Below, piece after piece: positions 510 to 15,299 of a stretch of 64,000 bases of DNA. Under the pieces are notes generated by a model. That model made no database searches. It saw only the letters and a list, made by a program, of their open reading frames with translations, and had not been told where the DNA came from. The stretch is from Thermoplasmata archaeon. GTDB taxonomy: Archaea > Thermoplasmatota > Thermoplasmata > RBG-16-68-12. Made by a program: the position numbers and the translations under genes. The stretch covers positions 558 through 64,557 of the forward strand of contig DASWDU010000001.1 of NCBI GenBank assembly GCA_036395115.1, given 5' to 3'. Positions within the stretch are counted from its first letter, which is position 1. Every line of letters begins with the position of its first letter.

Positions 510-1172
510 ATGAGCGACCGGATCACAACGCGGCGGTTCCACGAGTCTCAGGGCGTCGAGGATTGGCGCGTGGTCGGCGAAGGAGCGTGCGCGTCCTTCC
601 GCACCGGGTCGTTCGCGGCCGGCGCGCGGCTCGTGAACGCGATCAGCGATCTGGCCGGCCTCGAGGACCACCATCCGGACGTCGACCTGCGGTACGATGG
701 CGTGATCGTGCGGCTGATCACGGTCGCGGCCGATTACTACGGCCTGAGCGAGCGCGACCTCGAGCTGGCTCGGCAGATCTCGGCGAAAACGCGCGAGCTG
801 GGCGTCCCCGCCGACCCCGCCACCGTGCAGACGGTCCTCGTAACGATCGATGCATTTGACATCCCCAAGGTGAAGCCGTTCTGGCGTGCCGTGCTTGGGT
901 ATCACGATCGCGGGGACAGCCCCGAGGACCTCGTCGACCCCCGTGGCCGCGGAGCGTCTATCTGGTTCCAGAAGATCGACGCTCCAGACCCGCAGGTCAA
1001 CCGAATCCACCTCGACATCTGGGTGCCACCGGACCAGGCCCAGGCGCGAATCGCCGCCGCGATCGCTGAAGGCGGCCGCCTCGTCACCGACAAGCACGCG
1101 CCGGCCTGGTGGACGCTGGCCGATCCCGAGGGCAACCTCGCCGACGTGGCGACGACGATGAGCCGCGACTGA
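510..1172 (+). CDS. Pterin-4a-carbinolamine dehydratase (PCD/DCoH)-like domain fused to a VOC/glyoxalase-like domain
   Basis: ORF 285..1172. The internal ATG at 510 (MSDRITTRRF) is the preferred start, with ATG 471 as an alternative. The N-terminal half carries LEDHHPDVDLRYDGVIV (PCD HHPD motif). The C-terminal half (FWRAVLGY...IHLDIWVP...ADPEGN) looks like a glyoxalase-like/VOC domain. Confidence 0.7.
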   Translation: MSDRITTRRFHESQGVEDWRVVGEGACASFRTGSFAAGARLVNAISDLAGLEDHHPDVDLRYDGVIVRLITVAADYYGLSERDLELARQISAKTRELGVPADPATVQTVLVTIDAFDIPKVKPFWRAVLGYHDRGDSPEDLVDPRGRGASIWFQKIDAPDPQVNRIHLDIWVPPDQAQARIAAAIAEGGRLVTDKHAPAWWTLADPEGNLADVATTMSRD

Positions 1173-1324
1173 GCGTCTGTCCTGCAAGGCTCCGCACACG
1201 CGGACTTCGGGGCCGAGGGCCTACCCAGGCACGCTCGCGGTCGGGAGCAGTAGGGCGAGTTTCTGGCGAAATTCGGAACAAAGTCCGAACGCTCGGCCTG
1301 CATTGCGACCGGGAGGCAGCTCCC

Positions 1325-2962
1325 ATGAACACGGTGAAGTGGCGCAGGCTTCGCATGGCAGCGGTCGCCGTGGCGGGCTCCATGCTGTTCGCCGCCATCC
1401 TTGCGGTCTCCCCGGATGCCTCAGAGGCCGGGAGGAGCGGGAGCGACACCATGCCGCCCGCACGGAGCGACGGGTCGCCGACGGGGACCCTTCCGGCCGG
1501 CACGACGTCCACAACCCTTTCCTTGAACACGGACGAGCCGGCGATGTGCCGGTACTCGACGACGGCGGGGGTGGCGTACAGTCGAATGAAGGACACCTTC
1601 TCGACCACGGGAGGGATGTCGCACGCAACAGCGGTCGGGGGACTCCAGGACGGGACCATATTCACGTTCTATGTGCGGTGCCGAGACCTCTCCCGCAACG
1701 CCAACCCGGACGATTACCCGATCCGGTTCTCTCTACAATCCGGGGACGATTGCGGTACTCCATCCGCGAACGCCTACGGTACGTGGACGGCTGCCGAAGG
1801 GGCGTCGAATCCCCCGTCCTCCGGTCCCGAAGGGACCTGGACGTTCGTTCCGAGCCCGAACGTCGAGTCTACGTCGCCGTCGATCTTCGTCGACAACACC
1901 CTCCAGGGGATTGAGGCGATCGCGCCGAACGAGGTCTGGACCGTCGGGTACGCGAACAACCCGGACGGACCGCAATATTCCATCCAGACCCTCGCCCTCC
2001 ACTGGGACGGAAGCGCCTGGAGCATCGTGGCGACGCCGAACGCTCCCATGGACTGGAATCGGCTCTACGCCGTCGCGGCGACGTCCTCGAACGACGTGTG
2101 GGCGGTCGGAGCCTCGCAGGACCTCGCCTACGTCCCTCTGCAGACCCTCATCGAGCACTGGGATGGGACAGCGTGGAGCATCGTGCCCTCCCCGAGCCCG
2201 GGCGCCGTCGTGAACGAGCTGAGGGCCGTGGCGGCCGTGTCCGCGAACGACGCCTGGGCCGTTGGCTTCTGCGCCGGATGGTACCGGTCGAGCACGCTCA
2301 TCGTTCACTGGGACGGGGGGAGCTGGAGCCGGGTCCCGAGCCCGAATCCGAATGCGGCATTCGCGAGCAACGAGCTCTACGGGATCGCGGCGTTCTCCGC
2401 GGACGACATCTGGGCCGTCGGGGCTTCGGGCAACTCGACGCACCCCTACGCGCCCCTCGCCCTCCACTGGGACGGCGCGGCGTGGAACACACTCTCGACC
2501 GAAGGGCTGGGAGGCGGCGGCTACGGATCGTTTTTCCGGAGCGTCTCGGGGACGGCCTCCGGCGACTTGTTGGCGGTCGGCGCGACCGTCTTCGACGCAG
2601 GCCTCGAGGGCGGCATCCGGCATGTGGCCTTCGCCGCTCACTGGGACGGGGCCACGTGGACCCACATCACGGACTTCACCTTCCTAGACCCGGGGGGATA
2701 CTACTCCTCCTCGAACTTTTACGGCGTCTCGGCGGTCGCGAGCGACTTCGGCTGGGTCGTCGGTGAGGCGGCGGGCGACGCGTGGCTGTTCCACTGGGAC
2801 GGGACGGGCCTGAAGGAAGTCCCCGCACCGGACCTCCCCTGGTATAACACCCTGTACGCCGTGGACGCCCTGGGGACGGAGATCGCTTGGACGGCCGGCC
2901 GGTACGCAATCGAGGGAGAGAGCGGGACGAAGACTCTCACCGAAGTGTACACGGTCCGCTAG
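1325..2962 (+). CDS. Secreted repeat protein, probably a beta-propeller
   Basis: ORF 1109..2962. ATG 1325 gives MNTVKWRRLRMAAVAVAGSMLFAAILAVSP, a signal peptide. About six repeats follow, each with HWDG(S/T/G/A)xW..(V/I)..P and ND(V/A/I)WAVG. Confidence 0.8.
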   Translation: MNTVKWRRLRMAAVAVAGSMLFAAILAVSPDASEAGRSGSDTMPPARSDGSPTGTLPAGTTSTTLSLNTDEPAMCRYSTTAGVAYSRMKDTFSTTGGMSHATAVGGLQDGTIFTFYVRCRDLSRNANPDDYPIRFSLQSGDDCGTPSANAYGTWTAAEGASNPPSSGPEGTWTFVPSPNVESTSPSIFVDNTLQGIEAIAPNEVWTVGYANNPDGPQYSIQTLALHWDGSAWSIVATPNAPMDWNRLYAVAATSSNDVWAVGASQDLAYVPLQTLIEHWDGTAWSIVPSPSPGAVVNELRAVAAVSANDAWAVGFCAGWYRSSTLIVHWDGGSWSRVPSPNPNAAFASNELYGIAAFSADDIWAVGASGNSTHPYAPLALHWDGAAWNTLSTEGLGGGGYGSFFRSVSGTASGDLLAVGATVFDAGLEGGIRHVAFAAHWDGATWTHITDFTFLDPGGYYSSSNFYGVSAVASDFGWVVGEAAGDAWLFHWDGTGLKEVPAPDLPWYNTLYAVDALGTEIAWTAGRYAIEGESGTKTLTEVYTVR

Positions 2963-3698: not shown

Positions 3699-3771
3699 TG
3701 CTCCCGACGGGATTTGAACCCGTGTCAGAAGCTCGAGAGGCTTCTATCCTTGGCCACTAGACTACGGGAGC
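3699..3771 (-). tRNA. tRNA-Glu (anticodon CUC)
   Basis: The reverse strand folds by hand as GCTCCCG TA GTCT AGTGGCCAA GGAT A GAAGC CTCTCGA GCTTC TGAC ACGGG TTCAAAT CCCGT CGGGAGC A. This is a 73-nt cloverleaf with no encoded CCA. A TATA-like CCTTTATG lies about 30 nt upstream (3798-3805). Confidence 0.9.
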
Positions 3772-3884: not shown

Positions 3885-4700
3885 GTGAAGGCGGCACTCG
3901 CGCAGCTCGATCCGGCGGTCGGCGACAAGGCGAAGAACCTCCGGAAGCTCGAGACGACGATCGCGTCGGAGCGGGCGGATCTCCTCCTCGTCGGCGAGAT
4001 GTATCTGACCGGCTACATGGCCCGCGACTCGTTCGCGCAGCTCGCGGAGCCGATCGACGGCCCGACTGTGAAGGCGATCGCGAAGATCGCCTCGGAGCAC
4101 GGCACGCACGTCGTCTTCGGCATGCCCGAGCGCGAATCGGACACGCGCAAGCTGTACAACACGTCCGTGCTCGTCGCCCCGGACGGCAAGGTCGCCTCCT
4201 ATCGGAAGGTGTACCCGGCGAACTTCGGGCCGTTCGAAGAGGGTCTCTACTTCGGCCGGGGAGACGGCCTGACGCTCGTCGACACGAAGCTCGGGCGGAT
4301 CGGTCTGCTGATCTGCTACGACGCCTTCTTTCCCGAGCTCGCCAAGGCGTACGCCCTCCAGGGCGTTGACGTACTCGCGATCATCAGCGCCTCACCGGCC
4401 ACGTCGAAGCCGTTCTTCGACCGCATCTTGCCGGCGCGGGCGATCGAAAATGCGGTGTACGTGCTGTACGCGAACCTCGTCGGCGCGGAGCTGAACGTCG
4501 TGTTCCAGGGGGGCACCCAGGCGATCGGGCCGCGAGGCGAGGACCTCGGCAAGGCGCCGGACTTCCAGGAGGCGACGGTCGTCGCCGACGTCGACGTCCG
4601 CAACGTGACCGCGGCCCGGGGACTCCGGCCAACGCTCCGCGACACCCGCAAGGAGTTCTGGGAACCCGTCGCGCCGACGGTCCCGGTGCGCCGCTCGTGA
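3885..4700 (+). CDS. Carbon-nitrogen hydrolase (nitrilase superfamily)
   Basis: ORF 3834..4700. GTG 3885 (VKAALAQLDPAVGD) is preferred because family members start M-K-x-A-x-x-Q, and a GAGG lies about 10 nt upstream. Family motifs are LLLVGEMYLTGY (catalytic Glu region), YRKVY (Lys) and GLLICYD (Cys). Confidence 0.85.
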   Translation: MKAALAQLDPAVGDKAKNLRKLETTIASERADLLLVGEMYLTGYMARDSFAQLAEPIDGPTVKAIAKIASEHGTHVVFGMPERESDTRKLYNTSVLVAPDGKVASYRKVYPANFGPFEEGLYFGRGDGLTLVDTKLGRIGLLICYDAFFPELAKAYALQGVDVLAIISASPATSKPFFDRILPARAIENAVYVLYANLVGAELNVVFQGGTQAIGPRGEDLGKAPDFQEATVVADVDVRNVTAARGLRPTLRDTRKEFWEPVAPTVPVRRS

Positions 4701-4856
4701 GCGTGGCGCACCGACCGCCACCTTCATTAGCTGAGAACACCACTATACCTCCATGGAGGAGACACAGTCCTGAAGGCGTTCGCCATCGTTTTTCTCGCGC
4801 TGATCATCGCCGCCGTCGGGCTGCGCTCCGCGATCGCCGATCCTACGGACGACCTC

Positions 4857-5828
4857 GTGACCACACGCATCCACTTCGGCGTGCAGCAGACGGACATCAT
4901 CCCCGGGGTCGCCGCGATGCGGGCTGCGTGCGACATCGACGCGTCGGGGGAGCCGATCTTCATCTTGGCGAACGAGAGCACCCGTTCGATCTTGGCCGCC
5001 GGGCCGGGCCCCTGCACGATCGTCCTCGTGCTCTTCGGCCTCGACATCGGGCTGCCCGTGTTCGATAAGACGCCCCTCGGGACGCACTCCTTCTCGTTGC
5101 CGGGCATCTCGACGGTGACGCTCGGGTTCGTGGACCTGAGCGTGGACCTGACCACCTCTCTGGATTCGACGAGCCGCGTGCCGGACGGGATCGCGCAGGT
5201 GAGCCCGAGCCAGATCGGGTGGTCGGCGTGGGGCGCGAATCGGATCCTCATCCACGGGGAAGACGGGGTCGGGAGCATCGCGACCTCGGAACTCGAGACG
5301 ACGTTCGCGTACGCGATGTCGATCGGCTTCTCGATCTACTCGCACGGGATCCCCCTGTACCATCTGGATTTGGTGCGGATCGGATCGTTCACGGGCGGCC
5401 CGTCCCTCGTCACACCCCTCTCCGTCGACTTGCGTCCCCACACCCTCACGCTCGTGGGGCCGATGGAGCTGTCGGACGACCGCGCGACGTTCACCTGGAC
5501 CGGGATCGTCGATTCGGACGTCGATCATCTCGAGCTGTGGCTGACGGACGGGAGGACGAACGTCTCGTACCGGCTGCCGGCCAACGCGACGGACGTCGAG
5601 GTGACGTTGTGGCGCTCGACGCATTACGAGGCGCGCATCGTCTCCGTGGACGGCTCGAGCCAGATGTCCCCTTCGGACGCCATCGCATTCGATACGCCGA
5701 GTGCGGGAATTCAAATACAGGACGACCTGACGAGCCCCGCCCTCAGCTGGTCGATGATGGCGGTCGCGCTCGTGGCGGGCGGGATCGGCTTCCGGTGGGG
5801 AGCCGTACGCGCCCGCAAAGTCCGTTGA
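4857..5828 (+). CDS. Surface protein with an FN3-like domain and a C-terminal TM anchor. The real N-terminus is probably upstream (see finding).
   Basis: ORF track entry with a GTG start. It has an FN3-like segment (FTWTGIVDSDVDHLELWLTDGRTNVSYRLPANATDVEVTLW) and a C-terminal anchor (WSMMAVALVAGGIGFRWGAVRARK). An in-frame hydrophobic leader is encoded upstream of 4857. Confidence 0.75.
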   Translation: MTTRIHFGVQQTDIIPGVAAMRAACDIDASGEPIFILANESTRSILAAGPGPCTIVLVLFGLDIGLPVFDKTPLGTHSFSLPGISTVTLGFVDLSVDLTTSLDSTSRVPDGIAQVSPSQIGWSAWGANRILIHGEDGVGSIATSELETTFAYAMSIGFSIYSHGIPLYHLDLVRIGSFTGGPSLVTPLSVDLRPHTLTLVGPMELSDDRATFTWTGIVDSDVDHLELWLTDGRTNVSYRLPANATDVEVTLWRSTHYEARIVSVDGSSQMSPSDAIAFDTPSAGIQIQDDLTSPALSWSMMAVALVAGGIGFRWGAVRARKVR

Positions 5829-5949: not shown

Positions 5950-6579
5950 TCACCGCGGGTCATGCGGCAGGTGGCCCTCGATCGTGCGCGCGAGCGCCTC
6001 CCCCATGCGGCGGTAGCCGTCGACGTCCGGGTGGAGCCCGTCGGGCGATCCACGCAACCGGTGCGGCGCGGCCGGGTCCGCAGCGGCGGCGTGCGTGTCG
6101 CAAAACGGGATGTCGAGGACCTTCGCGAACGATTCGATCCAATGGTTCAGGGTGAAGATCGCCGCGGTGACGTCCGGCGATGCGCGGTCGAACGGGAGGA
6201 CGCTCGCGGCCACCGGCACGATCCCTGCATCGAGCGCTTCGGCGTACATCGCGCCGAACTCCCGCTGGATCGGGTCCGGCTCGTGGCCCGCGAAGAGGTC
6301 GTTGACCCCGGCGAGGATGATCGCGTACGCGGGCTTCGCGCGGACGACATCGCGCTCGAAGCGCGCGTGGACCTCCGCGGCGGTCTGCCCGTCGATCCCG
6401 CGGTTCAGCACGGTCCACTCGGGATGGAGGCGCATCATCCAGAACGCGTACTGGCTCGCGGGATTCCCGGCGCCGCGGGGCGGCGCCTCGAGCGGCGAAC
6501 GGAACCCCGGCGTGCCGGCGGTCGTCGAGTCGCCGATGCCGACGATCGTCAGGGGCGGGGAGGGCATGCTCCCCGCCAC
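5950..6579 (-). CDS. SGNH/GDSL-family hydrolase
   Basis: Block I is IVGIGDSTTAG and block III is ILAGVNDL. Block V is PDGLHPDVDGY (DxxH). Confidence 0.85.
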   Translation of the reverse strand: MAGSMPSPPLTIVGIGDSTTAGTPGFRSPLEAPPRGAGNPASQYAFWMMRLHPEWTVLNRGIDGQTAAEVHARFERDVVRAKPAYAIILAGVNDLFAGHEPDPIQREFGAMYAEALDAGIVPVAASVLPFDRASPDVTAAIFTLNHWIESFAKVLDIPFCDTHAAAADPAAPHRLRGSPDGLHPDVDGYRRMGEALARTIEGHLPHDPR

Positions 6580-6618
6580 ATCGACACCTGTGGAAAAGGC
6601 CTTTGGGAGCCGGTCGAA

Positions 6619-7146
6619 CTATCTCGTCCGGACTCGGAGGAGATGCGCCTGAGCGACGAGGCGGAAGGACGCCTCCACGTTCGAGCCGGTCTTCGCACTC
6701 GTGGCGAGCGAGGGCCAGCCGCGCGCCCGGCACACCTCGTCGACATCCGCGGTCGGGATCGCGTCCGGCGCCTCGAGGTCGGATTTGTTCACGAGCAGCA
6801 CGGCGGGGATCGGGCCCGCGACGCTCTCGACGGCCGCCGCCCAGTCGATGAGGCTCCACAGGCTCTCGGGCCGGGTCCGGTCGCACACGTACAGGACGGC
6901 CTGGCTGTTCGAGAAGTACGCGTCCTTCAGGAGTTCGCGGAATCCGAGGGACCCCATGATGTCCCACACGCTCGCGCCGACCTCGATCGAGGCGCCCGGA
7001 TGGCGCGAATCGTCGACGCGGAAGGTGCGCGAGGAGACTTTCGTGCCCAGGGTCGATACGTATCCGCGGTCGAACGTATCCGAGACGAATCGTCGGACGA
7101 GGCTCGACTTCCCGACGCCCGGGTCGCCCGCCAAGGCGATCTTCAT
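6619..7146 (-). CDS. Ras-superfamily (Rab/Rup-like) small GTPase
   Basis: ORF 6619..7197. ATG 7146 (MKIALAGDPGVGKSS) is preferred, with 7197 as an alternative. G1 is GDPGVGKS, a G2 Thr lies in STLGT, G3 is WDIMGS (Ser where Ras/Rab have Gln), G4 is NKSD and G5 is SAK. Confidence 0.85.
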   Translation of the reverse strand: MKIALAGDPGVGKSSLVRRFVSDTFDRGYVSTLGTKVSSRTFRVDDSRHPGASIEVGASVWDIMGSLGFRELLKDAYFSNSQAVLYVCDRTRPESLWSLIDWAAAVESVAGPIPAVLLVNKSDLEAPDAIPTADVDEVCRARGWPSLATSAKTGSNVEASFRLVAQAHLLRVRTR

Positions 7147-7257
7147 CGTGAGCCCCGGGACCGATCGGTCGACGACTGGGCGCTGGCGCGAGGCCATCCG
7201 CTCCTCCGTCCCGCGGACGGGACGATAAGCGTTTGCTCCCTGCTATCAGTCCCGCGA

Positions 7258-9258
7258 CTACATCGTCAGGGGAGCTAGGCGAGACAGCCCCGGATGCGCG
7301 ACGAGGTATCCCGTCTGGAGGTACCAGGCGAGCTGCGGCTCGAGGTCCCCGAACTCGTCCCGCAGGCCGTCCCATTCCCGGAGGACGGGTCCCCACGCCT
7401 CCTCGATCGCCCCCAAGAACTCGGACATCCGCCGGTTCAGGTCGTCCGGCGCGGCGCCCTCGTAGACGAGCGCAAAGAACAGGAACGCGCCCTTGTCGAT
7501 GGCGACCTCGCTCCGGTCCACGGTCATGCGCTTCAGGTCCCCCGGACCGCTCGATCCTCCGAAGGAATCGCGGACGAACCGCGCGACCAGCGTGAACATC
7601 CCGGAGGCGGCGAGCTCGTCTTGCACGGCCCCTATCTCACCGCCCGCCCTCGCAACGAGCCGCCCATCCCCGTGGATCAGGTAGAGGTCCGTCGGCCGGA
7701 ACGGTTTCGTCCGCAACCGCCGAACGAGAAGCCACGCGATTGGTACGGCGACCAGGGCGAACAAGAGCCACGGGTACATCCCGGACAACCACAGAATTTC
7801 GGCCGACACGGAATAGCGGAGGGTGAAGGCGACAAGAGTCGGCGTGAGCGCGGTGTCCGGCGTCGTGAGCGTCGCTCGGAGCCGCACGGGCTTCGTGAGC
7901 GCTCCAGACAGGTTCGCGCCGATGGCCGCCGCAGTCCACGACGCCCCGCCGTCCTGCGAATACGCGAACGAGACGGACGCGCCCGGCGGCCCGCTCCAGT
8001 TGGCCTGGAGGCGACCCCATCCCAGGAGCCCGACGGGGTCGAGGGACGCCGTCAACACCCGTCCCAGGGTCGCGAACTGACCATAGCCGATCGTCAGGTC
8101 GTGAAGGGACGGCGAGAGCGTGTTCGAGGTGAAAAGCTGAACGCGGTACTCGATGTACCGCGCGGGCGGCGAGGCGATCGGGCGTCCGGGACCGAGGTAG
8201 GCGGCGGACCACGCGCTCCACGATCCGTCGGGCGCCGGGCTCGCGCCCGACCGGGTCCGGACCTCGATTCCCGTGCCGGAAGGCACCGTCGCGGTCCACG
8301 TGATCGTCTCCCACGCCCCCCCGCTCCCGGTGTCGAAGACGCGGGACTCCAGGGCGCCGAGGGAGCTCGGCATGGCGTACGTGATCGTGAGGAACGGCCG
8401 GGCGGACGCGTTCGCCGCATCGGAGCTCCAGAACATCTTGTGCCCGCGGATGACGCTCGCGCCGTCGTCCGCCTGGCGGACCAGGAGGCCGTAGTTCGGC
8501 GCGCGGCCCGTCCACCAGTCGACCGCGGCGCGGGTGACGTCCCAGGTGTACCAGCCGGGCACCGTCCCGACCGCAGGCACGAGGTCCAGATCGGTCGGGT
8601 TGAAGTCCCCGCCGGCCGCCGTCCAGTCGAGCACGCCGTCGCGGACGCCCCACGTCGAGCCGTACTCCGTCCAGTTGTTCGTGATCGCGTGCACGCTGAC
8701 CGACATCGAGTTCGCCCTGTCAGAGGCGTACAGGTAGAGGAAGAGGTCAACCGTGAGGAGGGTCGCGTTCGCGGGGATCGGGAACGTCGGGAATTGGAGG
8801 ATCGCCCGGCTCCAGTTCGATTTGCTCGTGAACCCGAGTTTCAGGGTGTCGTTCGCGCCGAAGTTCGTGTTGGCGAAGCTGCCCGTCGCGATGTAGGTGT
8901 CGACCATCGAGGCAGGACCGGGCTGGAACGCCGTGCTCAGCGGGGGGCCGAGCCGCGACGTGTCCGCGATGAGGACGTCCCCTGGGCTGGCCGTGACATC
9001 GACGTTCGACCGCGCCAGCGCGAGCCCGAAATCCGCCGCGGTCGTGTCCGCGAACGTCCGGGAGAGCCAAGCGAGGCTCGCCCCGGAGGCTCCGATCGTC
9101 GCGTTCACGAGGCCGTAGTCGGACGGGTTCGAGAACGCCCACTCCGCTTGCTGCTCGCCCGCCGCCGAGGCCGTGACCGCGGGGTCCGCCGAAACTACCG
9201 CGGGGGCGACGAGGATCCCGAGGATCAGGGCGACGACCACGACCCGGAAACGGGTCAT
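7258..9258 (-). CDS. Single-pass surface receptor-like protein. Domain order is signal peptide, beta-sandwich ectodomains, TM segment, then a cytoplasmic Roadblock/LC7-like domain.
   Basis: Signal peptide MTRFRVVVVALILGILVAPAVVSA. The ectodomain includes LLTVDLFLYLYASDRANSMSVSVHAITNNWTEYGSTWG (DNRLRE/CBM-like pattern). The TM segment is YPWLLFALVAVPIAWLLV. The tail reads DLYLIHGDGRLVARAGGE..DELAASGMFTLVARFVRDSF..MTVDRSEVAIDKGAFLFFALVYEG. The ATG lies about 30 nt from TATA-like CCTTTACG (9283-9290). Confidence 0.85.
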   Translation of the reverse strand: MTRFRVVVVALILGILVAPAVVSADPAVTASAAGEQQAEWAFSNPSDYGLVNATIGASGASLAWLSRTFADTTAADFGLALARSNVDVTASPGDVLIADTSRLGPPLSTAFQPGPASMVDTYIATGSFANTNFGANDTLKLGFTSKSNWSRAILQFPTFPIPANATLLTVDLFLYLYASDRANSMSVSVHAITNNWTEYGSTWGVRDGVLDWTAAGGDFNPTDLDLVPAVGTVPGWYTWDVTRAAVDWWTGRAPNYGLLVRQADDGASVIRGHKMFWSSDAANASARPFLTITYAMPSSLGALESRVFDTGSGGAWETITWTATVPSGTGIEVRTRSGASPAPDGSWSAWSAAYLGPGRPIASPPARYIEYRVQLFTSNTLSPSLHDLTIGYGQFATLGRVLTASLDPVGLLGWGRLQANWSGPPGASVSFAYSQDGGASWTAAAIGANLSGALTKPVRLRATLTTPDTALTPTLVAFTLRYSVSAEILWLSGMYPWLLFALVAVPIAWLLVRRLRTKPFRPTDLYLIHGDGRLVARAGGEIGAVQDELAASGMFTLVARFVRDSFGGSSGPGDLKRMTVDRSEVAIDKGAFLFFALVYEGAAPDDLNRRMSEFLGAIEEAWGPVLREWDGLRDEFGDLEPQLAWYLQTGYLVAHPGLSRLAPLTM

Positions 9259-9341
9259 GGAAGCTTAGGGACCGGCCGCCCACGTAAAGGTTCCCGGGTC
9301 GTTATCAGACGCCCGAATTCTCACACCCTTCAAACTGGCCT

Positions 9342-9357
9342 GGTTAACATGTTAACC
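9342..9357. promoter_or_regulatory. Perfect 16-bp palindrome GGTTAACATGTTAACC in a divergent intergenic region (candidate operator)
   Basis: Read directly from the sequence. It equals its own reverse complement. It lies between the receptor gene start (9258, minus strand) and the SWIM-like gene (plus strand). Confidence 0.5.
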
Positions 9358-9478
9358 GGGGGACCTTGCGGTTCTCAGGCCGGCGGGGGTGGCCGAGGAG
9401 GCGGAGGCGCAGGATAGCTCGTCTCGCGGCGGAGGACTGCATCGAACGTTTATCCCGACGCACCGCGTACCCGCGTCG

Positions 9479-10123
9479 ATGGTCCGCGCGGTCAAGCCAA
9501 GCCGCAAGCGCGACGGACGTCTCGGCCCGCCCCAGGGCTATCCGAAGGACCTCGAGAAGTACGCGGACCCCGCGAACTGGAAGTACCCCGTGCACACGCC
9601 GTTCCACGCGCGCGCCGCGCGGCGGTACTTCAACGAGCCTCGCAACCGTGCGAAGTACACGCCGGAGGAGCAGGCGTACATCGACAAGAAGATCAACGAG
9701 GCGCTCGAGCGGTTCGGGGTCGCGGTGAAGATCCGAGGCGGAACGATCGAGGACGAGGCGGGCACGATCCAAGCCGACGTTCCGATGAACAAAGACATCG
9801 ACAAGATGACGTTCGACGACCTGCTGCTCGTCTTCCTCGGGAAGAACCGCCTCGCTTCCGCGCGGGGGATCGACCCCGGGGCCGCCTCGGTCGACAAGGA
9901 GACCGAGACGTTCCTCGCCGGCACGGTGAAGGAGTACTCGGTCCTGATTGACCGGCAACGGCGGCTCGTCGAGCACGATTGTGTGGACTTCAAGACGAAT
10001 CGCGCGGTGGGCCGGCTCTTCTGCAAGCATCTCGGAGCGTTCCTCATGCAGGCGGACCGGACGCGGGCGACGCGCCTCCTGCGTGAGCTATTGCGGGAGA
10101 GGGACCACTGGACATTCGCGTGA
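9479..10123 (+). CDS. Hypothetical protein with a C-terminal SWIM-like zinc-finger motif
   Basis: ORF 9389..10123 (GTG). ATG 9479 (MVRAVKPSRKRDG) is preferred. The C-terminus reads VEHDCVDFKTNRAVGRLFCKHLGAFL, which resembles the C..C-x-H part of SWIM fingers. The function is unknown. Confidence 0.55.
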   Translation: MVRAVKPSRKRDGRLGPPQGYPKDLEKYADPANWKYPVHTPFHARAARRYFNEPRNRAKYTPEEQAYIDKKINEALERFGVAVKIRGGTIEDEAGTIQADVPMNKDIDKMTFDDLLLVFLGKNRLASARGIDPGAASVDKETETFLAGTVKEYSVLIDRQRRLVEHDCVDFKTNRAVGRLFCKHLGAFLMQADRTRATRLLRELLRERDHWTFA

Positions 10124-10462: not shown

Positions 10463-13400
10463 TCACAGCCGGCTGAAGTCCGCCTCACGGTCCTTCCTCC
10501 TCGCCTCGCGTTCGGCCGCCGTCGAGAGCGGTGCGGCGCACCCGGGACACGCCCCTCCCGAGTCGACACAAGCCTTGCAAAGCCATGCGCCGCACACATG
10601 ACGCTGGACGCCGGGGGCGCGATGAGGCGAGCAGTTCGGTGGGAGACCGCCACCATCGATTTTCCCGGCGGACCTCGGCGACTCCGGCCTCCTTGAGACC
10701 GGGGTCGGCTCCGGGTCTCCTTCGCCCTTTTCTTCCGTGAGCGCCTCGCCCCTCGGCTTCTTGCGCTTCGATTCGGGCGCATGCCTCGTCGAGATCTTGT
10801 AGCCACCGCCCTCGAAGATCTTCAGGGAGACCTCGAGCTTCTTCGCCTCGAACGGTCCGAGGTGGAGTTCCTTCGCGAGATCGACGAGGTTCCACTCCTC
10901 TTTCGGGAGGTCCATCGCCTGCCGGATCAGGTCGTCGTTGTGCCACTCCGGGGTCGGCTCGAGCGGCGCCTCGCGCACCCAGTCGATGTAGCCCCAGATC
11001 GTGCGGGCTTCGTCCAGGTCGACGTGCGGCAGCACGGTCGTCACGTCCGCGAGCCGGATCCGGTCCAGATTCGCCGCGTTCTCCACGTTGCGCAAGACCG
11101 CGGCGCCGACGGCCTCGTACTTCCGGAGCGCCTCCGGCTCGATTCGGTCCGGGGCGAGCGGCGCGGGTTCGTTCACGTACCGGATGACCTCATCGAGGAG
11201 CTCGAGGGGCACGGAACAATACTTGAAGATCTCGTCACGCGTCGCGGGCCGCTTCAGGTGCGCCTCGAACCGGACGACCGCCTCGGCGAAGCCCTCGACC
11301 GTCGCGGCGTGGATGCGCTCCTCGGCGCGCCGCCTCCCGTCCGCCGCCGGCTCGTACGCCGGATCGAGGGCGAGTCCCGCGTCGAAGCACTTGAGCGCGT
11401 CGTCGAAGCGGCGAACGTGCAAAAGGGCGAGCCCCTTGCTCGTCCACGTCGCCTTGTCCCGCGCGTCCAGCCGCAGCGCCTCGTCGTACGCGGATGCGGC
11501 GGCGTCGTACCGGCCCGCCCGTTCGTCCGCGAGGCCGAGGGTGGTCCACAGGGCCTTGTCGTCCCTCCGCGATTCCGTCGCGCGGGCGAGCGCGTCCGCC
11601 GCGTCCGGGTACCGCTCCAACGTCAGGAGGACGAGGCCCCGTCCGCGCCACGCCGCGCCGTGCGACTCGTCCGCGTCGATCGCCGCGTCGAACGCCGCGA
11701 GCGCCTCGGTCGGCTTGTCGAGGGCCTGATACGCCTCGCCTCTCCACGTGAGCACGGCCGCGTCCGCCGGATGGGCCCTCAGCACGAAGTCGAGGCAGGG
11801 GATCGCCTCGGCGGCCCGGCCCGTCCGCAGGAAGCACACCCCTTTCGTGCGATAGGCGTCGTAGTTGTTCGGATCCTTCCCGAAGACGATCGTCACGAGC
11901 GACAGCGCGTCGTCGAAGTGAGACTCCGCGGCGAGGCACATCGCCTTTCCGTTCAGGAACTCGAGGTTCTCGGGATCCAGGAGGAGGCCGTCGTCGAAGG
12001 TCCGAAGCGCGTCCACGACCCGGCCGGCGTCGAACAAGAGGCGGCCCCTGGCGGCCAGCGCGGTGCGGTCGCCGGGGTTCAGGGAGAGGGTGCGGTCGTA
12101 CGCCTCGAGCGCCTCGGCCTTTCGGCCGGCGCGGACGAGCAACGCGCCTTTCGCGTTCCAGGTGCGGCGGTCCATCGGGTCCACGCGGGCGGCGCCGTCC
12201 AACTCCTCGAGAGCCGCGTCGAGCTTCCCGAGGCGCTCCAGGGCGACGGCCCGTTCGCGTCTCGCGTCCAGGTCGCGCGGGTCGATCTCGAGCAACCGCT
12301 CGCCGGCCTCTGCGGCCGCCTTGAACGAGCCTTGGGACGCCAGGAGGTCCCGCTTGGCCCGCAGCAGGTCCGCCCGGTCCGGCGCGAGGCCGACCGCCTT
12401 CCCGATCGCGACGAGCGCGTCCTTTCCCTGGCCGATGGCGCTCGCGTACCGCGCGCGCCGCGCCCACGCCTCGACGTCCTTCGGGTCCGCGACGGTCAGC
12501 CGACCGCTCGCGTCGAACGCCTCCTTCGTGCGGCCGAGCCCCTCGAGGGCGGCGCAGAGGCCCGTGAGTGCGGCCTTGTCCTTCGCGTCTGCCGCGACGA
12601 CCGTCTCGTAGATCGGCACGGCCTCCTCGTACCGGTGCAACTCGAGGAGACACGATCCCTGCTTCAGCAAGGCGGGCGTCATCGCCTTGTCCCGGAGCGC
12701 TGCCTGTCCGTACGCGTTCGCGGCCTCGTCGTATCGCTTGAGCCACTGGAGCGCGGTGCCTTTCCCGAGCCACGCCTTCGCGCTGTTCGGTTCGAGGGCG
12801 AGGGTGCGGTCGAACACCGCGACGGCCTGCTCGTACCGCGTCGCGCCTTCGAGCGACACCCCGAGCAGGTACCATCCCTTCGGATCCGCGGGCGCGTAGC
12901 GGGTCGCGCGGTCCAGGGAGTCGACCGCATCCGCGTAGGCCTTGAGCCAATACTGAATCCGGCCTTTCTCGAGCCACAGGTTCGCGGACGCGGGGTCGGC
13001 CTCGATCGCGGCGTCGTACGCCCGGAGGGCATCCTCGTACCGGCTCAGGTGGGAAAGCAACGCGGCCTTCCGCGCCGCGGCCCCGGGGGCGCGCGGATCG
13101 AGACGCAACGCCGCCTCGTAAGCGCCGAGCGCCGCCTCGGGTTCCGAGAGCCCTTCGTGGGCCTCGCCCTTCGCGACCCACGTGGATCGGTCGGATGGGT
13201 CTTTCGCCAGGATCAGGTCGCACGCGCGGAGGAGCGCCTTCGGGTCCTTCGAGAACCGCAGGGCGTCTCGCTGTCCGCGGATCGCGTCGAGGTCGTCGGG
13301 CGCGACGACGTGCAGCTGCTCGAACGTCGCGTACGCCCTGTCCGACTGGCCGAGGGCGAGCTGCGCCCGGCCTTTGTCCCGCAGGGCGCGGAGATGGTGA

Positions 13401-14689
13401 GGCTGCAGCGCCAGGATCGCGTCGCAGGCGGCCACGAGGTCCGCCCACCGCTCCGACGCGAGGAGCAGCTGGCGCTTCGCCTCGAGCCCGTCGTAGGAGC
13501 GGGGCTCGACCGCCAAGAACGCGTCGAAGGCGGCGAGCGCCTCCTCCCGCCGGTTCAGCTGGAGCAACGCGTGCGCCTTCGCAAAGAGCGCGGGGCCATG
13601 TCGCGGGTCAAGGGAGACGACCTTGCCGGCCTCCTGCACGACCTCGTCCCACCGGGCCAAGGCGCGCAACGCCTCCAAGCGACCGATGTGGGGCGCGAGG
13701 GCCTTCGGGGTGAGGGCGATCGCCCGATCGTACGAGCCGACCGCATCGACGTTTCGCCCGATTTTCCGGAGCAACTCGGCCCGGACGAGCCACGCGACCG
13801 CATCCCCGTCCCGGAGCCGAACCGCCTCGTCGTACGAGCGCAATGCCTCCTCGTTCTGGTGCGATGCCGCGAGGACGTCGCCTCGGAGCCGCCACGCGTC
13901 CGGGTCGTAGCCGTCGAGCTGGATCACGCGGTCGAGGCAACGCAACGCCCGCTGCGGGTCCTGCGCGCGGACGTACGCGAGGGCCTTGCCCTCGAGGGCT
14001 CCCTTGCACGCCGAGTCGACGCGAAGCGCACGGTCGTAGGCGGACTGAGCCTCCTCGATCTCGTCCCTCCGCCGGTGGGCCTCGCCTTTCCTGAGCCAGA
14101 GATCGACGTCCTCCGGCACGAGCGCGAGGACGCGCGCGTATCCATCCGTGTCGTCCGGGTCGAGATTCACGACCTGGATGTACGCCCGGATCGCCTCCGG
14201 ACGCTGGTCCAGGGAGGCGTGGGCGTTCCCTTTCCGAGCCCAGACGCCTTTCGCCGTCGGCTTCGCGCGCAGGGCGGCGTCGTAGTACGGGATCGCATCC
14301 GCCGGGCGGCCCGCCGCGACGAGGAGGTCTCCCTGCACGGCGATCGCGCGGACGTTCGCGTGGTCGCACTGGAGCGCCTCCGTCGCTGCCGCCTGGGCGG
14401 GCTCGACGTGGCCGACCGCGAGGAGGCCCGCCCCGACCCGTGCGCACGCCTCGGCCCATTCCTCCGGGCGTTCGATCGGCGCGGTCCGCGCCTCCAGTAG
14501 GCCGAGCGCCTTGAGATACGCGTTCGCCGCGCGGCCTTCCGCGCCCGCATTGAGCGACGCGCCGCCGGATTCGACGAGCCGGCGGACCTTTTCGAGGGTG
14601 CGACCTTCGCGATCCAGGAAGCCTTCGAGGAGAGCCATCCCTGTCATCCCATCCCGCGCACGCGGCCCGCTGGGGGTCGCGTCGGACAA
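10463..14689 (-). CDS. Giant TPR-repeat protein (1408 aa) with a C-terminal Cys/His-rich zinc-finger tail
   Basis: About 1,100 aa of 34-residue repeats of the form W..(K/R)G.A......Y.EA...YD.AL..DP. The tail reads C-x2-H-x7-H-x-C-x4-C-x2-C-x6-C-x2-C (NCSPHRAPGVQRHVCGAWLCKACVDSGGACPGC). TATA-like CTTATAGATAT lies about 30 nt upstream of the ATG. Confidence 0.9.
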   Translation of the reverse strand: MSDATPSGPRARDGMTGMALLEGFLDREGRTLEKVRRLVESGGASLNAGAEGRAANAYLKALGLLEARTAPIERPEEWAEACARVGAGLLAVGHVEPAQAAATEALQCDHANVRAIAVQGDLLVAAGRPADAIPYYDAALRAKPTAKGVWARKGNAHASLDQRPEAIRAYIQVVNLDPDDTDGYARVLALVPEDVDLWLRKGEAHRRRDEIEEAQSAYDRALRVDSACKGALEGKALAYVRAQDPQRALRCLDRVIQLDGYDPDAWRLRGDVLAASHQNEEALRSYDEAVRLRDGDAVAWLVRAELLRKIGRNVDAVGSYDRAIALTPKALAPHIGRLEALRALARWDEVVQEAGKVVSLDPRHGPALFAKAHALLQLNRREEALAAFDAFLAVEPRSYDGLEAKRQLLLASERWADLVAACDAILALQPHHLRALRDKGRAQLALGQSDRAYATFEQLHVVAPDDLDAIRGQRDALRFSKDPKALLRACDLILAKDPSDRSTWVAKGEAHEGLSEPEAALGAYEAALRLDPRAPGAAARKAALLSHLSRYEDALRAYDAAIEADPASANLWLEKGRIQYWLKAYADAVDSLDRATRYAPADPKGWYLLGVSLEGATRYEQAVAVFDRTLALEPNSAKAWLGKGTALQWLKRYDEAANAYGQAALRDKAMTPALLKQGSCLLELHRYEEAVPIYETVVAADAKDKAALTGLCAALEGLGRTKEAFDASGRLTVADPKDVEAWARRARYASAIGQGKDALVAIGKAVGLAPDRADLLRAKRDLLASQGSFKAAAEAGERLLEIDPRDLDARRERAVALERLGKLDAALEELDGAARVDPMDRRTWNAKGALLVRAGRKAEALEAYDRTLSLNPGDRTALAARGRLLFDAGRVVDALRTFDDGLLLDPENLEFLNGKAMCLAAESHFDDALSLVTIVFGKDPNNYDAYRTKGVCFLRTGRAAEAIPCLDFVLRAHPADAAVLTWRGEAYQALDKPTEALAAFDAAIDADESHGAAWRGRGLVLLTLERYPDAADALARATESRRDDKALWTTLGLADERAGRYDAAASAYDEALRLDARDKATWTSKGLALLHVRRFDDALKCFDAGLALDPAYEPAADGRRRAEERIHAATVEGFAEAVVRFEAHLKRPATRDEIFKYCSVPLELLDEVIRYVNEPAPLAPDRIEPEALRKYEAVGAAVLRNVENAANLDRIRLADVTTVLPHVDLDEARTIWGYIDWVREAPLEPTPEWHNDDLIRQAMDLPKEEWNLVDLAKELHLGPFEAKKLEVSLKIFEGGGYKISTRHAPESKRKKPRGEALTEEKGEGDPEPTPVSRRPESPRSAGKIDGGGLPPNCSPHRAPGVQRHVCGAWLCKACVDSGGACPGCAAPLSTAAEREARRKDREADFSRL

Positions 14690-15228: not shown

Positions 15229-15299
15229 GCGTGGGTAGTCTAGCGGTAGGACACCGGCCTTCCAAGCCTGAGACGCGGGTTCGACTCCCGCCCCACGCA
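15229..15299 (+). tRNA. tRNA-Gly (anticodon UCC)
   Basis: GCGTGGG TA GTCT AGCGGTA GGAC A CCGGC CTTCCAA GCCTG AGAC GCGGG TTCGACT CCCGC CCCACGC A. There is one C-U mismatch in the anticodon stem. Length is 71 nt with no encoded CCA. Confidence 0.85.

Follow-up and report, generated by a model that had tools for sequence, protein, structure and literature searches.

A Conserved Gene Pair of Soil Thermoplasmata Encodes a Surface Protein with a Predicted Longin-Topology Cytoplasmic Domain and a Rab-Like Small GTPase

Organization of the Locus

The window analyzed is a stretch of 64,000 nucleotides from a Thermoplasmata archaeon (contig DASWDU010000001.1). As had been described in an earlier, sequence-only reading of this DNA, three genes follow one another on the same strand with short gaps, of 60 bp between the receptor and GTPase genes and 39 bp between the GTPase and SGNH genes:

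5950..6579, minus strand: SGNH/GDSL hydrolase gene; 209 aa, without signal peptide
6619..7197, minus strand: Rab-like (Rup/RasL-type) small GTPase gene; 192 aa
6949..6966, minus strand: G3/switch II motif WDIMGS; Ser83 at the catalytic Gln position
7258..9258, minus strand: receptor gene; 666 aa, with signal peptide and ectodomain, a single TM helix, and a cytoplasmic tail of predicted longin/Roadblock-like fold
7261..7722, minus strand: cytoplasmic tail, aa 513-666 (154 aa), as in the AF2 models
7723..7776, minus strand: single TM helix, aa 495-512 (YPWLLFALVAVPIAWLLV), then the basic stretch RRLRTK
8380..8904, minus strand: DNRLRE/CBM96 module, aa 119-293 (NCBIfam NF033679 and Pfam PF24517)
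9187..9258, minus strand: signal peptide, aa 1-24 (MTRFRVVVVALILGILVAPAVVSA/DP; ...VVSA/DP), read from sequence
9283..9308, minus strand: promoter-like element CTGATAAC-N12-TTTACG, conserved 5' of receptor orthologues
9342..9357, no strand assigned: perfect 16-bp palindrome GGTTAACATGTTAACC, approximately 98 nt ahead of the receptor start

Homology support matters here because DNA of 67% GC, as this is, yields many spurious overlapping ORFs, and the reading frames were accepted as real rather than chance because homology supports them. Public gene calls for the same DNA contain an identical receptor and an identical 192-aa GTPase, and a Shine-Dalgarno-like GGAGGAG (7201-7207) lies directly 5' of the GTPase ATG. 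Upstream of the receptor gene, the TTTA of the promoter-like element is found approximately 30 nt ahead of the start codon, a position suited to the TATA box of a transcript with little or no leader; the element, in the form CTGATAAY...AAC[CG]TTTA[CG]G, also precedes the receptor orthologues in L001, L002, L004, L006, L010, and L014. The palindrome, a candidate regulator-binding site, occurs as a single copy in the window and in none of 100 shuffles; the L006 orthologue carries the identical palindrome at an equal distance upstream, while L001 carries GGTTACCGGTAACC instead.

The Surface Receptor

The signal peptide and single TM helix proposed earlier were both recovered by sequence and hydropathy, the latter peaking at aa 6-24, and the signal peptide is conserved among the orthologues. 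Since the RRLRTK stretch following the TM helix fits the positive-inside rule, the tail was placed in the cytoplasm. The ectodomain had been read as approximately 480 aa of beta-sandwich with a DNRLRE/CBM-like pattern; the pattern is borne out at aa 119-293 by matches to NF033679 (91.8 bits, cut-off 34; E 4.7e-26) and PF24517 (E 3.6e-13), and the remainder of the ectodomain (aa 25-118 and 294-490) returned no domain match of any kind. The founding member of CBM96 binds alginate (PMC9971899), and the receptor ectodomain is probably glycan-binding through its DNRLRE/CBM96 module.

The Small GTPase

The second gene encodes a complete small GTPase in which the G1 (GDPGVGKS), G3 (WDIMGS), G4 (NKSD), and G5 (SAK) motifs were all confirmed. 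The protein scores 92.4 bits against Pfam Ras (cut-off 21.6) and 76.4 bits against Roc, and its closest solved relatives are Rab1A/B (E about 1e-21). WDIMGS aligns on the WDTAGQ of Rab1, placing Ser at the position of the catalytic Gln; motifs and alignment thus agree with what had been read from the sequence. No C-terminal, lipid-anchor Cys was found in its sequence, and no membrane-association signal is known for the Rab-like proteins of archaea (PMC4915359). The earlier suggestion that a GTPase lacking this Gln depends on a partner may apply here, and does not stand as a general rule: the position is occupied by S, N, or A in the orthologues and by Q, A, or E in distant partner GTPases, such that, judged from these sequences, loss of the Gln is a clade-specific feature. 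The Ser substitution alone is no proof of dependence on the tail, because GTPases outside the clade that pair with the same domain often keep the Gln.

Predicted Fold of the Cytoplasmic Tail

The tail of the receptor has no match among Pfam, NCBIfam, or PDB sequences, and it falls short of the Robl_LC7 model and of every Pfam longin model. Modeling with AF2 from two independent MSAs, one of 8 sequences (pLDDT 79.0, pTM 0.77) and one of 41 sequences (pLDDT 85.8, pTM 0.80; five of five models at 82-86), gave one agreed topology, beta-beta-alpha-beta-beta-beta-alpha-alpha, which is the longin order and corresponds to the Roadblock core minus its N-terminal helix. The predicted elements are:

Strands: b1 521-529, b2 534-539, b3 576-580, b4 583-589, b5 593-600
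Helices: a1 546-566, a2 607-627, a3 639-650

The top 50 Foldseek PDB matches of each model (100 matches) were exclusively longin proteins (among them AP sigma, zeta-COP, Ykt6, VAMP7, and Sec22b, the last with TM 0.61/0.69) or Roadblock proteins (among them MglB, LAMTOR2/p14, dynein LC7, and Streptomyces 3kye); neither top 50 contained a GAF, PAS, or enzyme fold. The scores were modest (TM 0.3-0.69, mostly 0.35-0.55; rmsd 3-7 A; E 1e-4 to 1e-2). Robl_LC7 was the sole Pfam family to match more than two of 41 family members, with sub-threshold matches to five of them (best E 8.9e-4); one relative matched Fuz_longin_1 at E 0.04. The Robl_LC7 alignment sets tail residues 10-89 on model positions 15-89 of 91, passing over the Roadblock N-terminal helix in a register that agrees with the AF2 models.

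On the strength of these models, the tail is predicted to belong to the Roadblock/longin superfamily with longin topology. The sequence-only reading, in which structure modeling had been put forward as the test for an unrelated fold, had likened the tail to Roadblock/LC7/MglB; the superfamily was upheld by both models and their Foldseek matches, and the canonical Roadblock/LC7 form, with its N-terminal helix, was not. That the tail is instead an unrelated alpha/beta domain, small-molecule-binding or enzymatic, whose likeness is that of a generic alpha/beta sandwich, would be in keeping with the lack of a significant Roadblock or longin profile match for the window tail, with the modest TM-scores of most matches and their rmsd of 3-7 A, and with a fold assignment built on models rather than structures. 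Such an artefact is nevertheless very improbable, given that the two alignments converged with high confidence, that all 100 top matches fall in one superfamily, that the relatives' Robl_LC7 matches are in the structurally correct register, and that the genomic partner belongs to just the protein class that this superfamily binds.

Conservation of the Gene Pair and the Wider Tail Family

Receptor orthologues align over their full length at 44-74% identity. In agreement with the synteny anticipated earlier, the GTPase gene is found immediately downstream of the receptor gene in nine of nine testable independent orthologous loci (L001, L002, L004, L006, L008, L009, L010, L011, and L014). The neighbors of these pairs otherwise differ between loci, and no conserved effector gene was found beside them. 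The SGNH protein matches Lipase_GDSL_2 (E 1.8e-25) and contains the GDS, GVND, and DGLH blocks; its gene lies 3' of the pair in L004 and L008 only, the two closest loci, and is absent after the pair in L001, L002, and L006. The hydrolase is an accessory, lineage-specific gene: its earlier description as co-operonic with the other two holds for its orientation and short gap, but not as membership of the conserved module.

Relatives of the tail form a large unannotated family of 1,382 clusters, the neighborhoods of which were sampled in 80 metagenomic loci (530 kb of DNA). Adjacency of the domain and a Ras-like GTPase gene was seen in no fewer than five further architectures, from Archaea and presumed Bacteria. 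These include a cadherin/Big_9 surface protein of another Thermoplasmata MAG (L019), tail-TM-OmpA proteins (L015, L090), short 2-TM tail proteins (L087, L092, L093, L096, L097, L099), and a 735-aa single-TM tail protein (L080). The tail is on the cytoplasmic side in the archaeal (SP-ectodomain-TM-tail) and OmpA (tail-TM-OmpA) forms alike. The earlier question of whether the tail always accompanies a GTPase can thus be answered yes for the orthologue group and no for the wider family: adjacency recurs but is missing from most of the family's long surface proteins.

Since most family members have no adjacent GTPase, the role of the domain may be more general than GTPase pairing. Taken further, the tail would be a general cytoplasmic dimerization or scaffolding module of surface proteins, and the GTPase either its client or effector in occasional lineages or functionally unrelated. 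Consistent with this, a Ras-like GTPase was present in just 10 of the 80 sampled loci, beside one of 26 testable long surface proteins, in none of the 10 testable loci of the largest sequence cluster, and beside none of the giant proteins with two to three domain copies (L018); Roadblock and longin folds also have uses unrelated to GTPases (SNARE longin, dynein LC7), and both appear among the Foldseek matches. We nonetheless regard this explanation as unlikely, in view of the strict adjacency in the orthologue group despite differing flanks and its recurrence in the other architectures. Nine of the 10 GTPase genes in the 530-kb sample lie within 1.5 kb of a tail gene. Small GTPases of the Ras-like kind are uncommon among prokaryotes, 1,611 genomes having yielded 71 small Rup sequences from 43 of them (PMC4316618), and adjacency on so many occasions is therefore far beyond what chance would give. 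Moreover, the GTPases of unlinked members could be encoded elsewhere in their genomes.

Relationship to Known Systems

The closest parallel is found in Bacteria, where the G3 Gln is missing from Group 1 Rup GTPases, whose genes adjoin one for a protein described as "unknown domain + TM + OmpA"; none of 121 Rup sequences was coupled to MglB (PMC4316618). As in the window pair, a Ras/Rab-like GTPase without the G3 Gln, uncoupled from MglB, is encoded beside a membrane protein with a conserved cytoplasmic domain next to the TM helix. The bacterial domain-TM-OmpA form, with a coiled-coil protein preceding, was recovered as a homologue of the window tail (P0017/L015, L090), and by sequence the tail family includes this partner. 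The window host differs in being an archaeon, its domain is C-terminal, following signal peptide, CBM96/DNRLRE module, and TM helix, whereas that of the bacterial form precedes TM-OmpA at the N-terminus, and its pair has beside it no coiled-coil protein and no output gene for a diguanylate cyclase or histidine kinase. The sequence-only reading knew of no characterized example of the architecture in archaea; the archaeal SP-CBM96-TM-tail form is indeed distinct, but an association of the domain with Rup GTPases was already on record for bacteria, under the label of a "domain of unknown function." Wuichet and Søgaard-Andersen (2014) gave the domain no fold (PMC4316618), whereas a longin/Roadblock fold is predicted here.

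With MglA/MglB of Myxococcus and Thermus, the pair shares a gene for a Roadblock-superfamily protein (by prediction, for the tail) beside one for a small Ras-like GTPase; MglB regulates its GTPase, and four MglB structures (6hjm, 6h5b, 3t12, and 1j3w) were among the Foldseek matches of the tail. MglB, however, is soluble, has the N-terminal helix, and passes the Robl_LC7 model that the window tail fails. The window GTPase is not of the MglA type, because the Asp of its G3 is retained (WDIMG) and its best alignment is to Rab1. In actinobacterial conservons (CvnA-D/Mfp), a membrane sensor kinase, a Roadblock protein, a DUF742 protein, and a GTPase are encoded together (PMC4316618, PMC13015309). 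The window locus likewise combines a membrane sensor, a domain of predicted Roadblock-like fold (Streptomyces 3kye was matched), and a small GTPase, but here the sensor and the Roadblock-like domain form one polypeptide, histidine kinase and DUF742 protein are absent from the locus, and the GTPase is outside the MglA family to which that of the conservons belongs.

Eukaryotic and Asgard platforms, namely Ragulator-Rag, Mon1-Ccz1-Rab7, TRAPP-Rab1, and AP sigma/zeta-COP with Arf, resemble the tail in longin topology, membrane attachment, and a Rab-like GTPase partner, each as predicted for the tail. SRX-SRbeta is a further longin/Roadblock GTPase platform comparable to the pair. The best full-length structural matches of the tail are Sec22b, VAMP7, Ykt6, and AP sigma (TM 0.5-0.69). 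Longin topology is that of Roadblock without the N-terminal helix and with one more helix at the C-terminus, and Roadblock/longin dimers are conserved GTPase platforms (PMC10933270). In contrast to these systems, the window tail has no detectable sequence relationship to Pfam longin models, has a TM helix of its own as membrane anchor, shares one polypeptide with an ectodomain, and belongs to a non-Asgard archaeon. The ArvA/ArvB/ArvC system of Euryarchaeota is also a small-GTPase operon of non-Asgard archaea with a membrane-related role, such as is proposed for the pair; in 93% of the genomes with ArvA, the gene immediately downstream encodes ArvB (DUF2073), and the system further includes ArvC (DUF2072) (PMC10927574). 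Both are absent here, where the partner of the GTPase is the upstream TM receptor.

Proposed Function

The explanation we favor, and hold to be reasonably probable, is a conserved two-gene membrane-to-GTPase switch in soil Thermoplasmata, in which the tail binds the GTPase and controls its location and nucleotide state. The first gene would provide a type-I surface protein with a CBM96/DNRLRE ectodomain, a TM helix, and a cytoplasmic longin-topology domain, and the second a soluble Rab-like (Rup-type) GTPase lacking both lipid anchor and catalytic Gln. The tail would probably dimerize, as in other Roadblock/longin platforms, and the GTPase would be recruited to the membrane by binding to it. 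The tail, whether as a GAP, as a GEF, or as a docking site specific for one state, would set the location and nucleotide state of the GTPase and in this way link what happens at the ectodomain to the GTPase cycle. Gene structure, domain identities, the predicted fold, strict synteny, and the recurrence of the domain-GTPase pairing in other architectures are established; the physical binding of tail and GTPase, GAP versus GEF activity, the direction of the signal, outside-in signaling by the receptor included, the ligand, and the downstream output are what we infer.

Information could also flow in the opposite sense, or the logic be spatial, with the GTPase cycle governing the clustering, exposure, or activity of the surface protein, as in envelope attachment, adhesion, or polarity (in the way that MglA positions machinery); or the pair could drive local membrane remodeling, as with longin proteins and Rab/Arf in trafficking. 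The ectodomains found with the tail (CBM96/DNRLRE, cadherin/Big_9, OmpA) bind or anchor and are not classical sensors, coat subunits and SNARE longin domains are among the top structural matches, Euryarchaeota form vesicles through the action of small GTPases (PMC10927574), and polarity is controlled by MglA/MglB (PMC9481161). However, coat, fusion, or motility machinery is not indicated anywhere in the locus, and ArvB and ArvC are missing at the window locus and the orthologous loci, leaving this alternative, in our estimation, quite improbable. As sequence cannot reveal information flow, it departs from the switch only in direction and output; contact between tail and GTPase is common to both. 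The analysis of the tail also gives a name to a large, formerly unlabeled protein domain family.

Organization of the Locus

The sequence-only reading had proposed three co-oriented genes, and minus-strand ORFs were found exactly where it had placed them:

9258 to 7258, minus strand: receptor gene, ORF of 666 aa
7197 to 6619, minus strand: GTPase gene, ORF of 192 aa
5950-6579 (read 6579 to 5950), minus strand: SGNH hydrolase gene, ORF of 209 aa

The signal peptide, transmembrane (TM) helix, G1-G5 motifs and SGNH blocks of the products were all located at the expected positions. The intergenic gaps measure 60 bp (receptor/GTPase) and 39 bp (GTPase/hydrolase), a GGAGGAG site lies immediately 5' of the GTPase ATG, and public gene calls on identical DNA give the same receptor and the same 192-aa GTPase. 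The third product matches Lipase_GDSL_2 of Pfam (90.9 bits vs. a cut-off of 32.9) and carries the catalytic blocks GDS at aa 16, GVND at aa 91, and DGLH at aa 180. The window, with a GC content of ~67%, was searched for a second copy of the tail (the cytoplasmic domain of the receptor, aa 513-666) or of the GTPase, and none was found. With four locus proteins, searches against the PADLOC defence models at E ≤ 0.01 gave zero matches, and hence a reading of the locus as anti-phage defence was dropped.

A promoter-like element, CTGATAAY-N10-12-AAC[CG]TTTA[CG]G, is situated at window positions 9283-9308 with its TTTA ~30 nt before the receptor start, and it is common to seven loci: the window and, among the numbered related loci from other genomes and metagenomes, L001, L002, L004, L006, L010, and L014. 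Its conservation upstream supports the receptor start codon and the placing of the receptor first in the unit, and the position of the TTTA points to a transcript with a short leader or none. Further upstream, ~98 nt before the receptor start codon (window 9342-9357), there is a perfect palindrome of 16 bp, GGTTAACATGTTAACC. L006 has it twice, once at the same distance from the receptor orthologue (1515-1530) and once in front of another gene (271-284); in L001, a related palindrome, GGTTACCGGTAACC, precedes the gene at 1728 by ~140 nt. The palindrome looks like a candidate operator for some regulator.

The remaining features recorded in the window are the following:

1109-2962, plus strand: 617-aa ORF
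3699-3771: tRNA-Glu-CTC
4857-5828, plus strand: 323-aa ORF, convergent with the SGNH gene
9389-10123, plus strand: DUF6582 gene, divergent from the receptor gene
10463-14689, minus strand: gene for a 1,408-aa TPR protein
15229-15300: tRNA-Gly-TCC
56711-56794: tRNA-Leu-TAG

The 1,408-aa protein, encoded upstream of the receptor and beyond the DUF6582 gene, consists almost entirely of TPR repeats (TPR_2, E 1e-82) and ends in a Cys-rich C-terminus, CGAWLCKACVDSGGACPGC, that resembles a zinc ribbon. The 617-aa product has an N-terminal hydrophobic anchor or signal, no Pfam match, and at least six HWDG-x-x-W repeats (e.g., LALHWDGSAWSIV and LIEHWDGTAWSIVPSP), which suggest a secreted beta-propeller; the 323-aa product, also with no Pfam match, has a C-terminal hydrophobic segment and may be another surface protein. 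The GC content dips to ~60% at 26-28 kb, 42-44 kb, and 54-56 kb from a background of 66-70%.

Conservation of the Receptor-GTPase Pair

MAGs from soil and sediment, with the label Thermoplasmata or 'Methanobacteriota' archaeon, contain full-length orthologues of the receptor (44-74% identity), and the tail is the best-conserved part of these proteins. The GTPase gene directly follows the receptor gene in every orthologous locus with downstream DNA (nine loci: L001, L002, L004, L006, L008, L009, L010, L011, and L014). Cluster scoring marked three orthologous loci as GTPase-less on account of long stop-to-stop ORFs in high-GC DNA; the GTPase is present in each. The outer neighbours of the pair vary among the orthologous loci, and no effector gene is conserved beside it. 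The SGNH gene follows the pair in L004 and L008 only; it is thus considered a lineage-specific passenger and was ruled out as part of the module. Hence, of the three-gene set proposed initially, the receptor-GTPase pair is kept in the orthologues but the hydrolase is not conserved with it. The DUF6582 neighbour is common to L004, the closest relative, and to identical public contigs, and is absent from the more distant orthologous loci; being shared with the closest relative only, this gene was also ruled out as a component of the module.

The Receptor Ectodomain and Membrane Anchor

The TM helix of the receptor comprises aa 495-512 and is followed by RRLRTK. Its ectodomain contains a DNRLRE/CBM96 module at aa 119-293, recognized by both NF033679 of NCBIfam (91.8 bits vs. 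a cut-off of 34) and PF24517 of Pfam (50.1 bits vs. a cut-off of 26); outside this module, the ectodomain gave no profile match. Given that the ligand of the founding CBM96 is alginate (PMC9971899), the extracellular contact that the ectodomain would make is probably with a glycan.

In the related protein P0008 (435 aa; L006 1615-2922), the whole membrane-proximal half of the ectodomain, equivalent to aa ~300-490, is gone; the DNRLRE module, the TM helix, and the tail are retained and the GTPase gene is still adjacent. The membrane-proximal domains are thus dispensable for the module. With a second orthologue, P0007 (L002 ~1100-1195), the public gene call begins at an internal Met and omits a signal peptide. 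A GTG ~30 nt past the conserved TTTA box gives back a typical signal peptide, VRLLWIPLLGVLLLMPVAAADP, and the deposited start is probably wrong.

Predicted Fold of the Tail

The receptor tail (aa 513-666) matched nothing in Pfam at E ≤ 10. Single-sequence and profile searches gave nothing significant among PDB sequences or in NCBIfam, a tail-only word-index search gave zero matches, and a 41-sequence tail profile retrieved only four proteins, with uninformative names. A sequence match of the tail to 3kye of Streptomyces (E 0.89) was out of register and was taken as chance. The size of the family came to light only through an exhaustive phmmer search, which returned 1,382 representative clusters with E ≤ 1e-3, of which 77 reached E ≤ 1e-10; among 10 diverse members, none (0/10) had a Pfam model over the tail domain.

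AlphaFold2 models of the tail attained a pLDDT of 79.0 and a pTM of 0.77 with an eight-orthologue alignment, and 85.8 and 0.80, respectively, with an alignment of 41 family members, for which all five models had pLDDT values of 82-86. The order of elements in both is beta1-beta2-alpha1-beta3-beta4-beta5-alpha2-alpha3 (in tail numbering: E9-17, E22-27, H34-54, E64-68, E71-77, E81-88, H95-115, and H127-138); alpha1 contains a conserved motif, DELAASGMFTLVARFVRDSF, and WDG is a further motif. A longin has been described as a Roadblock domain minus the N-terminal helix and with an extra C-terminal helix (PMC10933270), and the longin order of beta-beta-alpha-beta-beta-beta-alpha-alpha, as defined there, is present in the modelled tail. 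The Roadblock N-terminal helix is absent from both models, which have two C-terminal helices instead.

When Foldseek was used to compare the models with the PDB, the top 50 matches of each were longin or Roadblock proteins only. The longin matches (AP sigma, zeta-COP, Ykt6, VAMP7, and Sec22b) span the whole tail (135-145 columns, TM-score 0.5-0.69), with values of 0.61/0.69 over 135 columns for Sec22b (2nut_C), 0.54-0.56 for VAMP7, 0.49-0.57 for Ykt6, and 0.50-0.56 for AP sigma. The Roadblock matches (MglB, LAMTOR2/p14, LAMTOR4/5, dynein LC7, and 3kye) span the core only (82-115 columns, TM-score 0.3-0.67); those to MglB, LAMTOR2/p14, dynein LC7, and 3kye had E values of 2e-4 to 6e-3 and probabilities of 0.98-1.00.

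The tail encoded in the window matched nothing at E ≤ 10 when compared with Robl_LC7 (PF03259, gathering score 23 bits), nor did it match the Pfam longin models. With each of the 41 family members scanned singly, Robl_LC7 was the sole Pfam family matched by more than two; it was found sub-threshold in five of them, at best with 19.4 bits and E 8.9e-4, and Fuz_longin_1 reached E 0.04 in one relative. The Robl_LC7 alignments place tail residues 10-89 on model positions 15-89 of 91, with matches beginning at 14-15. They are in register, beginning just past the Roadblock N-terminal helix. A modelling artefact is an unlikely source of the fold assignment: the two models agree, all 100 of the top matches fall in one superfamily, and the traces of Robl_LC7 are in register. 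The models and the weak sequence signal together place the tail in the Roadblock/longin superfamily as a divergent member of predicted longin topology; by its profile scores, it is outside Pfam Robl_LC7. The initial assignment to the Roadblock/LC7 fold therefore held for the superfamily, as seen in the models and the Foldseek matches, but not for a Roadblock domain proper, since the N-terminal helix is missing and the Robl_LC7 profile is not matched.

The Wider Tail Family

The tail domain is found C-terminal to a TM helix in many large surface proteins, but also after multi-TM regions (sometimes in tandem), alone, or N-terminal to a TM helix and OmpA or SH3 domains. Sidedness can be reasoned for two of these architectures, signal peptide-ectodomain-TM-tail and tail-TM-OmpA, and in both the domain is predicted to be cytoplasmic. 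Two to three copies occur in giant proteins (2,000-2,400 aa) for which no TM helix is predicted.

Among individual proteins, P0020, P0027, P0029-P0042, and the product of L018 5319-12440 range from 1,100 to 2,400 aa with no predicted TM helix and with copies ~500 aa apart; P0020 and P0037, the two scanned, also have CARDB and a C-terminal DUF5915. At L018, the sole giant-protein locus examined, there is no GTPase neighbour. P0044, P0047, P0050, P0052, P0114, and P0140 have four TM helices followed by two tandem tail-domain copies, which would amount to an intramolecular 'dimer' of the platform; an adjoining GTPase was not seen in the testable loci of this subfamily (L075, L086, and L089).

Of 80 loci sampled from metagenomes for the broad family (530 kb), 10 contained a Ras-like GTPase, and nine of these 10 GTPase genes were ≤1.5 kb from the tail gene. 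Over the whole analysis, a Ras-like GTPase was seen beside the domain in several unrelated architectures, listed below.

Tail-family loci with a neighbouring GTPase gene
L019: 1,409-aa cadherin/Big_9 protein of another Thermoplasmata MAG; GTPase upstream
L015-L017, L090: tail-TM-OmpA proteins
L087, L092, L093, L096, L097, L099: short 2-TM proteins
L080: 735-aa single-TM protein
L053: soluble protein, no predicted TM helix

Linkage was seen in 4/4 testable loci of short proteins, 1/26 of long surface proteins, and 0/10 of the largest sequence cluster; the coupling of tail and GTPase genes is not universal in the wider family. With so many members unlinked to a GTPase, the tail may serve in dimerisation or scaffolding generally, with the GTPase as an occasional client; countering this, the adjacency is strict and repeated, and it involves a class of genes seldom found in prokaryotes.

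The GTPase

The GTPase matches Ras of Pfam with 92.4 bits (cut-off, 21.6) and has the motifs GDPGVGKS, STLGT, WDIMGS, NKSD, and SAK. Its best matches are Rab1A/B (E ~1e-21), and the Rab1 assignment is one of best-hit similarity. The proposal that Ser replaces the catalytic Gln was borne out by the Rab1 alignment, in which WDTAGQ lies over WDIMGS and Ser83 occupies the Gln position. At this G3 position, the Thermoplasmata orthologues have S, N, or A; elsewhere, Q is found in L015, in L019, and in the short 2-TM type, and L090 has A. The protein ends in ...LLRVRTR, with none of the C-terminal Cys prenylation motif of eukaryotic Rabs. Archaeal Rab-like proteins have been reported to have no lipid anchor and no known route to the membrane (PMC4915359).

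Comparison with Known Systems

A link between bacterial Rup GTPases and an unnamed domain was reported from gene neighbourhoods in 2014; for prokaryotic Rup GTPases, no partner is known from experiment, and coupling to MglB is seen in none of them (PMC4316618). No relevant follow-up work on Rup partners was found in the searchable literature. As with Group 1 Rup (PMC4316618), the window GTPase does not have the G3 Gln (WDIMGS), and the HMM of the window's tail matches the domain-TM-OmpA proteins P0017 (residues 149-299) and that of L090, both of which adjoin a GTPase. Robl_LC7, which would denote MglB coupling, was not matched in eight scanned products (the operon and its immediate neighbours) or in the orthologous loci. 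Unlike Group 1 Rup, neither the window locus nor the archaeal orthologous loci have a coiled-coil gene or a diguanylate cyclase/histidine kinase gene. At L015, a 198-aa apolipoprotein-like coiled-coil gene (4421-5017) overlaps the downstream tail-TM-OmpA gene and a 194-aa gene (7256-7840) is overlapped by the upstream GTPase gene, an arrangement that fits the multi-gene Group 1 Rup neighbourhood (PMC4316618). Given that a coiled-coil gene followed by tail-TM-OmpA is the Group 1 Rup neighbourhood of 2014, the window's tail is an archaeal, receptor-fused version of the unnamed domain.

The G3 of the window GTPase retains an Asp (WDIMG), unlike that of MglA, in which the conserved Asp is missing, and its best matches are Rab, not MglA. 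ArvABC is characterized by DUF2073 (ArvB) directly downstream and DUF2072 (ArvC) nearby (PMC10927574); neither was found at the window locus or the orthologous loci, and the downstream gene is the SGNH hydrolase in the former and varies in the latter. The GTPase genes of cultured Asgard archaea generally do not share operons with Roadblock or longin genes, and hence genome layout gives no means of matching partners there (PMC10933270). With their defining features missing, membership in the MglA/MglB, conservon, and ArvABC systems was ruled out.

Proposed Function and Significance

The analysis shows how the genes are built and which domains they encode, a predicted fold for the tail, and an adjacency that is both strict and recurrent. 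The best-supported reading is that of a membrane-tethered platform controlling the adjacent GTPase, which rests entirely on prediction and gene context. The tail would function as a tethered longin/Roadblock platform, acting as a dimer, to bind the Rab-like GTPase and set its location and nucleotide state (as a GAP or GEF, or by effector docking), while the receptor ectodomain would supply the extracellular contact, probably with a glycan. This reading fits with the conserved role of Roadblock/longin dimers as GTPase platforms (PMC10933270), the lack of a lipid anchor on these GTPases (PMC4915359), and the loss of the catalytic Gln in the clade; that a partner could compensate for such a loss was already raised for Group 1 Rup (PMC4316618). 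It is from gene adjacency that we infer a dimeric tail platform which would bind the GTPase and alter its nucleotide state; the mode of action (GAP, GEF, or effector docking), signalling direction, ligand, and output are also inferred. A real contact between tail and GTPase may instead work inside-out, exert spatial control, or remodel membranes, which sequence alone cannot separate from platform control of the GTPase.

Longin-Rab partnerships of eukaryotic trafficking include Mon1-Ccz1, TRAPP, DENN, and SRX-SRbeta, and a GTPase with a Roadblock/longin partner is, as a general kind, already well known. No report was found in the searchable literature of the longin-type fold assignment of the tail, of the size and diversity of its family, which Pfam and NCBIfam lack, or of the archaeal receptor-fused architecture in strict synteny with a Gln-less Rab-like GTPase. 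A broader proposal, rather doubtful when all of its parts are taken together, is that the tail defines a large family of membrane-tethered longins (~1,400 clusters at 50% identity) in Archaea and presumed Bacteria (OmpA type), that these are the cognate regulators or docking sites of Rup-type GTPases, that longin-Rab pairing is pre-eukaryotic and occurs outside Asgard, and that the Thermoplasmata receptor is a one-component 'receptor-GEF/GAP' joining a glycan-binding domain to a G protein.

The receptor-GTPase pair is clean and strictly syntenic, and its putative platform is itself membrane-anchored; the partnership is thus directly testable with two small recombinant proteins. The 'domain of unknown function' described for bacterial Rup GTPases is given a predicted fold and a likely role, as are more than 1,000 unannotated protein clusters. 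If the binding proves true, the pairing of a longin-type platform with a Rab-like GTPase would be an old prokaryotic invention and the pair would serve as a minimal model of receptor-to-G-protein coupling, with bearing on both the origin of longin-Rab partnerships and the means by which prokaryotic Rab-like GTPases reach membranes.
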